NCBI GenBank assembly: GCA_965215565.1 | Contig: CBDCDZ010000004.1 | Coordinates: 1,248,001-1,312,000 of the forward strand | Reading direction: 5' to 3' | Source of the DNA: Trueperaceae bacterium | GTDB lineage: Bacteria > Deinococcota > Deinococci > Deinococcales > Trueperaceae | DNA: 64,000 nt | Shown here: in pieces, positions 42,704 through 45,436 of the stretch | Layout of the letters: each line of letters starts with the position of its first letter | Numbering within the stretch: position 1 is the first letter of the stretch | The notes under the pieces: model-generated | Told to the model about the DNA's origin: nothing | Seen by the model: the letters and a program-made list of their open reading frames with translations, nothing else | The model's database searches: none | Translations under genes and position numbers: made by a program

Positions 42704-42814
42704 TAGCGGTTATTAGAAGTATTAAATTGAAATAGCGCAGATATCATCCTACAATGTGCGTGCTAGTCGTTGTTCTATCATGTGAGATTGGCTCAAACCA
42801 GATGATACCTGCTA
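42704..42814 (-). mobile_element. MITE-like repeat family A copy (short variant; unoccupied IS110 target)
   Basis: tagcggtt...ctcaaaccagatgatacctgcta. Confidence 0.8.
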
Positions 42815-43046
42815 TAAACGTTTCCCCGAGCGCTTTTCTCGGTGATATGGGATGAAGCGGAATCCGTATCGGGTTAGCAGTTCCAAAACATACTGAGACA
42901 GATTACTGCAGGTCTCTGTCCGTAGGACTAGCGGGATTTCATCTCCGCAAGTGCGTGCCAGTTACGCAGTTTGCTGCCTAGCAACGGTAACTCGCATAGT
43001 GAGAATGTGAGAATGTCTCAAACCAGATGAACTTAGTATAGAGTTG

Positions 43047-43985
43047 TCAAGCCCCCTTCCACCTCTGTGGGTGCTGCTGAGTGACTTGCAGCATGAAACG
43101 AAAGAGTTCTCTTGCGAGATAGGTTTTGAGACTTCTTAGAGCAGCCCGGCGGGTCTTGCCTTGCTGCTGTTTCTTGTCGAGATAGGCTCTTGTCGGTTCG
43201 CTGTGGCGCAGTCTGACTTGGGCAATCATGTGAAAGGTGCGGTTGAGCCGACGGTTGCCGCCGATGTTGAGTTGCCTTCTCTTCTGACCACCAGAAGAGC
43301 GCTCGACAGGCGCACAACCTGAATACATGGCAAAGGCGTGTTGTGAACGAAAGCGTCGGATGTCACCTGCTTCAGCAAGTAGCGTGGCGGCGTGAACGAC
43401 GCCGACGCCAAAGACCTCTAAGAGTTCAGGCATCAGTTCGTCAACGAGGGCTTTCATCGCCTGCTCGAGCGTCTTGAGTTGTTCTTTAAGCACTGCAATA
43501 ACGGCTTCGACGGCTTGGCGAGCCACCTCTAGCTCAAGGCTCGCTAAGCTCAGCTTGTGCGCTGTAAGCTGTTTAGCTAGCGCTTCTCGGGTGCGGGTCA
43601 GATGTTTGAGGTCTTCAACCGCTTGCCGAGGTGCAAACGTAGTCAGCTCAGGATTAGCCAAAGCAGCCCGAGCTACGTTTTCAGCGTCTACCTCATCACT
43701 CTTCTTGCGTCCTCTTTTGCTGCGGTACTGACTCGTCAGACTCGGACTAATGTCCACAACCTTATGGTCCTGCCCGAGCAACGCTTGACTCAACCTCCGA
43801 GCAAAGGGGTTATTCGCCCCTTCAATAGCGCACCGCTGAACGTCATAGCGCTTTATCCAGTGCTCCAAAGTTGCCAAGCCCTCAGCCGTATTCGTAACGG
43901 TGCAGTGACCTAATACCTTGCCCTGTTTATCTAACGCTGCTGCGGTATGGCTCTGCGGATGTGGATCAACCCCTATAATGACCAT
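43047..43985 (-). CDS. IS110-family DEDD recombinase/transposase
   Basis: IGVD, IEG, KSDEVDA (DEDD); GVGVVHAA, F..YSG.AP..RSSG (catalytic Ser), GGNRRLN. Confidence 0.95.
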   Translation of the reverse strand: MVIIGVDPHPQSHTAAALDKQGKVLGHCTVTNTAEGLATLEHWIKRYDVQRCAIEGANNPFARRLSQALLGQDHKVVDISPSLTSQYRSKRGRKKSDEVDAENVARAALANPELTTFAPRQAVEDLKHLTRTREALAKQLTAHKLSLASLELEVARQAVEAVIAVLKEQLKTLEQAMKALVDELMPELLEVFGVGVVHAATLLAEAGDIRRFRSQHAFAMYSGCAPVERSSGGQKRRQLNIGGNRRLNRTFHMIAQVRLRHSEPTRAYLDKKQQQGKTRRAALRSLKTYLARELFRFMLQVTQQHPQRWKGA

Positions 43986-44004
43986 ACAACCTCCTTAGGT
44001 TGCT

Positions 44005-44143
44005 GCTCACGGTAGCTGCTTATCCGTCTATGAGGCTACTAAGCGTCTTAGTATCAGGCAAGCTCCGTGTAGCTTAGTGAGCGAGGTGTGCAGTTCATCT
44101 GTTAGCCCTAAAGCTGATACTTGCTGGGCATCACCTCGCTTCT
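44005..44143 (-). ncRNA. Predicted bridge RNA (target-binding loop and donor-binding loop)
   Basis: Two stems with internal loops. Loop segments AGCAAGUAUC and CAGAUGA match the target; AUACUAAG and AUAGACGGA match the donor junction. Confidence 0.82.
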
Positions 44144-44185
44144 CTTAATATACGGATACCTGCTAAGGTGTTAGACTCAGGACTT

Positions 44186-45436
44186 ATGACCCTCCGAACT
44201 GCCAGAGGCACCTTTGATATTTTGCCCGAGGACCAACCTCGTTATAGGGCGCTCTACAGCGCGGCTGAGCGCGTGCTAGGGGGCGCGGGCGTTTTAGAAA
44301 TCGCTACGCCCATCTTCGAATATACCGAGGTCTTTACCAAGTCAGTCGGCGCGTCGTCGGACCTCGTGGTGCAAAAGGAGATGTACACCTTTGAGAAGGG
44401 CGAGCGCTCCTTGACCTTGCGTCCCGAATTTACGGCGGGCGTCCTGCGCGCCTATATCGAGAACGGGCTGAGTAGCCGCCGGACGCCTGTCAAGCTGTGG
44501 AGCAAGGGTCCGGTCTTTCGCGCCGAACGCCCTCAGCGCGGCAGGTTCCACCAGTTCCACCAGGTCAACTGTGAGTTGTTGGGGCTCGAGACGCCCCTCA
44601 TCGACGCCGAGGCGGTTGCGCTCCTCTACACGGTCCTGAGGGAATGTGGGCTCAGCGAACTGCGCGTCAAACTCGGCTCGGTAGGTGACCCCGAAGATAG
44701 GGCGCGCTACAACGATTACTTGAGAAACGAGCTTCGCGCGGCGGACCTTTCCGAAACCTCGCGAGAACGCCTGCGCCTCAACCCGATGCGCATTTTGGAC
44801 TCTAAAGACGAAAAGGACCAGGGCGTCATCCGCGATTTGAAACGTCCGCTGGACTTTCTCAACGAGGACGCTGCCGCGCACTTCGGGGCGGTCAAGGGCT
44901 ATTTGGAAGCGTGGCGTATTCCCTTCGACGTGGACGACAGCATCGTGCGCGGGCTCGACTACTACCGCCGCACCGCCTTTGAGATTCACCACGGCAGTAT
45001 CGGCGCGCAGTCCGCGCTCTGCGGCGGCGGACGTTACGACGGCCTAGTCGAGAGCATGGGCGGGCCGCCGACGCCCGGCGTCGGCTGGGCGTTCGGTGCG
45101 GAGCGCGTCTTGGACGCTATGAACGAAGAGAACGTCGCCCTCCCCGCTGCCCCGCGCCCCGCGCTCTTTCTCGTGCCGATGGACGAATTTGCTATAGGAG
45201 AGGTTGCGCAGACCGCGCTGCGCCTCCGCCCCACCTTTTGGGTTGAACATGCGTATACTAAGCGCAACCCCGGCAAGGGGCTTAAAGAGGCGGACCGCGC
45301 CGGGGCCCACTACGCCGCCCTGCGCGGCTCCAAAGAGCGCCAAGAAGGGGTTTACAGCGTGAAGCACCTGGGGTCGGGCGAGCAGACGCAGGTGCCAGAA
45401 GGTGAATTAGGGGCGTTCCTAAAAGCGCATACTTAA
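44186..45436 (+). CDS. hisS: Histidine--tRNA ligase
   Basis: KEMYTF, LRPEFTAG, FRAERPQRGR, VRGLDYY, GGGRYDGL. Confidence 0.97.
   Translation: MTLRTARGTFDILPEDQPRYRALYSAAERVLGGAGVLEIATPIFEYTEVFTKSVGASSDLVVQKEMYTFEKGERSLTLRPEFTAGVLRAYIENGLSSRRTPVKLWSKGPVFRAERPQRGRFHQFHQVNCELLGLETPLIDAEAVALLYTVLRECGLSELRVKLGSVGDPEDRARYNDYLRNELRAADLSETSRERLRLNPMRILDSKDEKDQGVIRDLKRPLDFLNEDAAAHFGAVKGYLEAWRIPFDVDDSIVRGLDYYRRTAFEIHHGSIGAQSALCGGGRYDGLVESMGGPPTPGVGWAFGAERVLDAMNEENVALPAAPRPALFLVPMDEFAIGEVAQTALRLRPTFWVEHAYTKRNPGKGLKEADRAGAHYAALRGSKERQEGVYSVKHLGSGEQTQVPEGELGAFLKAHT

Follow-up and report, generated by a model that had tools for sequence, protein, structure and literature searches.

The described systems closest to the element analysed here are IS621 and ISCro4 (IS622), both with a CT core. 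The accessible text on IS621 (PMC11208160, PMC11208158, PMC13626964) describes a 326-aa recombinase, a 14-nt target footprint and a handshake at position 7, and orthologues that hardly depart from T at the second core base and are reprogrammed at the first base only. The ISCro4/IS622 screen, in the available part of its preprint (bioRxiv 10.1101/2025.05.14.653916), drew on the IS621-like clade. Bridge RNAs are reported as predicted in 85.7% of catalogued IS110-group elements, and the homing targets given in the available literature are REPs, attC sites, IS3 genes and Tn21 inverted repeats. ISPpu10 and ISPpu9, of another protein clade, are described as present in multiple copies, all within one intergenic repeat family (REPs). 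IS4321/IS5075 (IS1111-group) home into a conserved part of other mobile elements (Tn21 inverted repeats) and ISEc21 into IS3 transposase genes (PMC11187229), the target as described being a non-autonomous MITE in neither case. Natural reprogramming is reported for relatives of ISEc21 and ISEc11 in the same source (PMC11187229), and retention of the donor copy is disputed in recent preprints, as far as these are accessible.

The window, i.e. the whole 64,000-nt stretch of Trueperaceae DNA analysed, carries an IS110-group insertion sequence inside a miniature inverted-repeat element (MITE). Its main features are:

43029..44156, minus strand: intact IS110-group insertion sequence, 1128 bp including both TC cores; ends set by shared flanks
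43047..43985, minus strand: DEDD recombinase, 312 aa (D7, E55, D97, D100; S231), PF01548 plus PF02371
44155..44156, minus strand: left core TC, positions 8-9
43029..43030, minus strand: right core TC
43031..43039, minus strand: left donor arm in the right end, forming with the left end a 5-bp sub-terminal inverted repeat (TATAC/GTATA); read from the sequence
44157..44165, minus strand: start of the host MITE, 9 bp comprising terminal repeat and left target
42875..43028, minus strand: remainder of the host MITE, 165 bp once rejoined; flanking 3-mers unlike at this copy
42704..42814, minus strand: neighbouring empty 111-bp MITE with an exact, unused target; read from the sequence

The genome carrying this element (G000) contains seven full copies, six identical and one with a single change. 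All seven lie at the same site, TAGCAGGTA-TC-ATCTG, in the conserved 5′ end of the MITE, as expected from the initial annotation, which proposed insertion into another mobile repeat. TC is the sole duplication: as is typical of the IS110 family, all seven copies lack terminal inverted repeats and any duplication beyond the short core. Excision of the element with one TC had been claimed to restore a MITE end, and the resulting 16-mer indeed has 211 exact occurrences in the genome. The long left non-coding end (171 nt, vs 18 nt after the stop codon) and the 5-bp sub-terminal repeat correspond to the IS110-group rather than the IS1111 layout. The recombinase has an N-terminal DEDD RuvC domain (PF01548, E 6e-22) and a C-terminal Tnp domain (PF02371, E 1e-20). 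The DEDD residues and catalytic serine, recognised in the initial annotation, are invariant (D7/E55/D97/D100) or nearly so (S231) in an alignment of 50 homologues, and E55, D97/D100 and S231 align with E60, D102/D105 and S241 of IS621. Foldseek searches with a predicted model (pLDDT 88.8) gave IS621 and ISCro4 as best matches (TM 0.75-0.79, 24-26% identity), with TM 0.78 to IS621.

Two pairs of copies (G000:C4:2530236-2531363 with 3105977-3107104, and G000:C4:638751-639878 with 681664-682791) share 87 and 63 nt of identical host-MITE sequence that is absent from empty copies, which share at most 33 nt with them; two such pairs arise in 0.05% of random draws. In one of these hosts the far end of the MITE is missing. 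The shared stretches could stem from gene conversion among the copies or from flanking sequence carried along, and the seven copies may represent five independent insertion events. Elsewhere, a scar at G000:C4:3341785-3341813 has 25 nt from the start of the IS left end lodged within a MITE end, with MITE sequence following, and a partial IS copy with many small deletions (G000:C4:3452590-3453450; decay or an assembly artefact) lies between duplicated MITE sequence.

Identification of the resident repeat as a MITE holds up: it is a short, non-coding, multicopy unit with 6-bp terminal repeats (TAGCAG/CTGCTA), and a 3-bp direct repeat flanks 137 of 268 copies (8.3 expected), with a matching 5-bp gap at paralogous empty sites. 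The 268 are those with a recognisable far end among 399 genomic sites that match the 16-mer target with two or fewer mismatches, and 106 of them are 111-bp units. The 3-bp duplication is intact in four of the seven occupied hosts, that of the copy at 43029-44156 not being among them. The MITE end motif was found in six of the 41 genomes searched, all six from one family, and the orthologous loci of two congeners lack both MITEs and the IS. A REP/RAYT reading of the host repeat was rejected because of its terminal repeats and 3-bp duplication; the only Y1 domain found (Y1_Tnp, HUH; locus L185, G000:C4:3786234-3786551) is part of a frame of 1322 codons that, by our reading, resembles a restriction-modification methyltransferase and whose coding sequence contains AAGGGG/CCCCTT palindromes. 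IS630-type TA duplication was likewise rejected, TA being part of the element itself. A search of G000 and of the transposase loci retrieved turned up no autonomous partner sharing these ends; there are IS5-type elements that end in TAG, with other termini.

Genome-wide, the MITE copies are mosaics with modular inserts of ~21-24 bp, and one 52-copy variant has two changes, its small terminal hairpin still paired. Tandem arrays of the MITE 5′ end at 21-32-bp spacing occur at G000:C4:179865-179946 and 1994338, and in genomes G046 and G020. In the window, the MITEs and IS lie ~20 bp upstream of the likely hisS start (44165-44186) and have displaced the native upstream region ~1.46 kb from hisS-aspS, at a locus that is empty in congeners.

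The left non-coding end of the element contains a predicted bridge RNA, with the following parts:

44004..44140, minus strand: predicted bridge RNA core from consensus folds; target-binding loop, then donor-binding loop; no 5′ stem-loop
44139-44132/44088-44081, minus strand: first stem
44116..44125, minus strand: left target guide (LTG), positions 1-9; one mismatch, at position 4, to occupied sites
44104..44115, minus strand: hairpin within the target loop, its GC/GC pairs the same in all 21 sequences compared
44095..44101, minus strand: right target guide (RTG), 7 nt, positions 8-14
44093..44094, minus strand: handshake bases of the target loop (AC), able to pair with donor positions 7 and 6
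44073-44005, minus strand: second stem
44047..44054, minus strand: left donor guide (LDG), donor positions -1 to 6; core unpaired in this element
44023..44031, minus strand: right donor guide (RDG); conserved part is the core plus 10-12
44021..44022, minus strand: handshake bases of the donor loop (UA), able to pair with target positions 7 and 6

Both stems and all four guides had been named in the initial annotation and were found in place, in the LTG/RTG plus LDG/RDG arrangement of bridge RNAs; the handshake bases had been overlooked there. The target loop begins ~17 nt after the core. The left end (172 nt) folds more stably than any of 200 shuffles (z = -3.4). Of the two-stem fold originally proposed, the two guide loops are recovered in consensus folds, where all four guides are in open loops between stems with compensatory changes (13/41 pairs with 6 sequences, 23/30 with 21 sequences), while the minimum-energy fold of the single sequence partly pairs the guides. 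When the left end was dinucleotide-shuffled 20,000 times, each guide match taken singly occurred in 0.7-1.5% of the shuffles, two together in nine and three together in none. Rfam gave no match at E <= 1. The donor guides partly bear out their first description: the LDG segment matching the element end is present, although its pairing does not reach the core in this element, and the 8/9 RDG match is present, although across the clade only the core and positions 10-11 (28 and 27 of 29), and less so position 12 (18/29), are retained. The proposed compactness applies to one component, the RNA, since the recombinase (312 aa) is only slightly smaller than that of IS621.

The LTG mismatch at position 4 is seen with all occupied sites; the 52-copy MITE variant fits the LTG perfectly on the left, and none of the seven copies uses it. 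Guide pairing might be necessary without being sufficient, with the MITE hairpin or bases past position 14 gating insertion. The target forms one arm of a 12-bp internal inverted repeat within the MITE, GTT follows position 14 in 7/7 hosts vs 90/211 empty exact sites, and a stem-loop gate is reported for the ISPpu10 target in the available part of a preprint. The GTT bias, however, could reflect two extra RTG bases with a bulge, or non-independent copies, and many homologues have target sites without a hairpin, as far as checked. We regard such gating as possible but somewhat doubtful; it is also compatible with the main reading, that of an RNA-guided recombinase whose guides specify the MITE end.

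Comparison of homologous loci supports RNA guidance. From 185 loci examined, 103 had both gene ends and enough flank, of which 70 were >=41% identical; 58 had both end motifs, which were matched without fixing the core letters (12 lacked one and were dropped), and 49 had TC at both ends (nine with a non-TC call dropped), including six copies of this element. These gave 29 distinct guide sets, with guides taken from alignment columns and flanks not used. The end motifs were written after the loci had been viewed, and related elements share history and are not independent. Of 348 target-guide positions compared with the flanks of the same element, 282 matched; 5,000 permutations gave a mean of 129 and at most 173. 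With one element per 70%-identity protein cluster (14 clusters) 132/168 matched (permuted 60.9, maximum 99), and with 60%-identity clusters (nine) 87/108 (permuted 42.3, maximum 69), so that the covariation suggested as a check on the initial annotation persists after clustering. The pairing signal extends over positions 1-14, is weak at 15 and is at chance level at 0 and 16; several homologues have partly matching sites (e.g. L132, L128 and L108).

The handshake base is the base following each right guide and pairs with position 7 of the other substrate. This pairing was found in 27/29 sets in both loops (16.9 and 17.9 expected; cognate pairing in 1 and 0 of 29), and in 14/14 and 9/9 after clustering; it corresponds to the handshake described for IS621, in the form that favours insertion. 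The second handshake base (position 6) did not covary (6 and 11 of 29). In the donor guides, covariation was seen at the variable columns LD3, LD5 and RD10; most donor columns are invariant and so provide no such test. Across the 29 sets the LDG skips position 7 (5/29), pairs the core T (25/29) and does not pair the core C at position 9 (0/29).

The main departure from characterised systems would appear to be the TC core, which the initial annotation named without seeing its significance. The left core is TC in 57/58 loci, and both cores are TC in 49/58; the other nine are mostly apparent wrong motif picks or tandem copies, with one TT and one offset by a base. The core is also encoded in the guides: LTG ends in TC (48/49), RTG has GA (49/49) and RDG has GA (47/49). 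Its register is less directly given, because cuts after T or after C yield identical junctions and sequence alone cannot separate them. A register shifted by one, with the cut between T and C, T at position 9 as in IS621 and C fixed at 10, would fit those junctions equally, as well as LDG pairing of T (25/29) and never C, and the near-invariant T9 of IS621 orthologues, described in the available text as read by the G63 backbone. With TC at 8-9, on the other hand, the IS621 positions are reproduced by the LTG (1-9), the RTG (8-14), the handshake (7) and the 14-nt footprint alike, 48/49 LTGs end in TC, and the left end reads TC-[CT]GTAT across the clade where the accessible IS621 supplement row gives CT-TGTAT. 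Guide footprint, handshake position and left-end register thus favour positions 8-9, and we consider the shifted register unlikely. N58, at the position of IS621 G63, was rejected as a reader of C9 (G/A/N in 20/13/10 of 49 in the clade); the Asn immediately after it is nearly fixed and provides a lead for C9 reading.

That targeting is instead due to the protein or to homologous recombination between repeats, with loop matches as by-products, is hinted at by the right-flank sequence common to the two copy pairs, but is hardly credible given that the repeat left of the element is only 9 bp and that covariation, the handshake signal and the re-aimed guides of a relative (below) would be unexpected without RNA-DNA pairing.

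Relatives at 92% and 71% identity have the same target guides and target as this element. In genome G054, a relative with 75% identity has guides aimed at a second TC, 3 nt deeper in the same repeat end, and all three of its copies are found there. G000 itself carries a second TC-core IS110 element (G000:C4:420860-421990) at 56% identity, which is interrupted by one in-frame stop and has guides that match a target of its own. Homologues of <41% identity have other end motifs. The 92% orthologue (L002:1413-1500, G002) has a 78-bp insertion just past the start codon, also a loose end in run X7. A remnant of a diverged sibling (L190, G002:C2:2075273-2075332), comprising the left end and target loop only, is at the same MITE site, and at the right end of L031 the core is separated from MITE sequence by a palindromic segment of 21 bp that ends in TC. 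Clade members L138, L083, L088 and L033 are found at TGTC/CGTC-led or other palindromic repeats, a possible link to the CGTC-tagged REPs described in the available part of PMC3733652 being a lead.

Taken together, the locus very probably encodes a bridge recombinase of the IS110 group, active now or until recently, that belongs to a TC-core clade and is guided into a MITE end. Sequence comparison supports a two-loop RNA encoded in the left end, with a target loop that specifies 14 bp of the conserved MITE 5′ end (positions 1-14, TC core at 8-9) and a donor loop that matches the element ends once joined; in both loops the first handshake base pairs with position 7 of the other substrate. By analogy with IS621, the element would circularise, and the circle junction would build a sigma-70 promoter from two hexamers:

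43045..43050, minus strand: -35 hexamer TTGACA of the predicted circle-junction promoter; overlaps the stop codon
44147..44152, minus strand: -10-like hexamer TATATT, separated by 18 nt from the -35 once circularised

The joined ends read TTGACA, 18 nt, TATATT; a promoter scan of the linear locus gave one match vs 0.6 expected, i.e. chance level. Neither the circle joint, in contigs of four runs (contigs drop rare forms), nor the joined donor ends, in the assembly, were found. On the IS621 model, RNA and a recombinase tetramer would then bind both circle and target, the top strands would be cut 3′ of TC by S231 together with the DEDD site, and strand exchange, with handshake pairing favouring insertion, would leave the element between two TC cores without other duplication. 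The MITE would supply the landing sites, which are intergenic and number >200.

The element thus resembles IS621, as the latter is described in its accessible text, in the RuvC DEDD and Tnp serine architecture, the RNA in the long left end with target loop before donor loop, the strand logic of LTG, RTG, LDG and RDG, the 14-nt target with position-7 handshake, the junction promoter (predicted here) and the target in a multicopy intergenic repeat. It differs in identity (~25%), in core (TC vs CT), in an RNA of ~137 nt (vs 177 nt) without a 5′ stem-loop, in a natural RTG of 7 nt (vs 4), in an LDG that spans -1 to 6 and skips the core (that of IS621 pairs through core position 8) and in targeting a MITE end rather than a REP. 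Three traits of the IS621-like clade, an N-T core with T at 9, a 5′ stem-loop and an LDG through position 8, appear to be absent. ISCro4/IS622, as far as its preprint is accessible, has the same fold (TM 0.78, predicted model) and guide layout, with a CT core and 24% identity. ISPpu10 and ISPpu9 share confinement of multiple copies to one repeat family, and IS4321/IS5075 and ISEc21 share homing into other mobile elements, whereas re-aiming here amounts to a 3-nt shift within one and the same repeat end, unlike that described for ISEc21 and ISEc11 relatives.

An unnamed cluster of the IS110 tree (PMC11208160, Supplementary Table 1 row 391) shares the clade motifs GVDPH and EGAGN; it has no ISfinder protein, and the row gives no core or RNA. 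The searchable part of the PMC11208160 supplements gave no match to the donor ends of the clade. No report of an IS110 ‘TC core’ was found in the literature searched; such elements may be described in sources beyond it, such as subscription papers, patents, figures, ISfinder or bioRxiv supplements. Titles and abstract openings on bridge RNA and Deinococcota yielded nothing on such a clade, the sole match concerning bacterial editing. Bridge RNAs and repeat targeting being already known, what sets the element apart is the clade-wide TC core, the short RNA and an LDG that stops short of the core.

We lean, with some reserve, towards a clade of bridge recombinases, not described so far, that occurs in Deinococcota, Acidobacteriota and Chloroflexota and is characterised by a TC core with C at position 9, a minimal ~137-nt two-loop RNA and an altered donor register, with access to sites closed to IS621/ISCro4 and orthogonality to both. 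In Trueperaceae it would be a parasite of MITE ends, re-aimed by a 3-nt guide slip, that may sometimes carry host-MITE sequence.

Characterised bridge recombinases, in the sources as accessible, need T as the second core base, which limits their reach. A natural clade with TC in both DNA ends and three guides is a ready route to other sites and to enzyme pairs that do not cross-react: if the reading is true, it opens sites closed to IS621/ISCro4 and is orthogonal to both, and TC joining could widen the reach of RNA-guided gene-editing tools. The question of what reads the core becomes directly testable, with an element that offers decoded guides, identical recent copies, naturally reprogrammed relatives and many empty targets. 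For the biology of the family, the locus would be that of a real, recently mobile IS110-group bridge system, probably working like IS621, and a clear example of a mobile element that takes the ends of a different one as its target.
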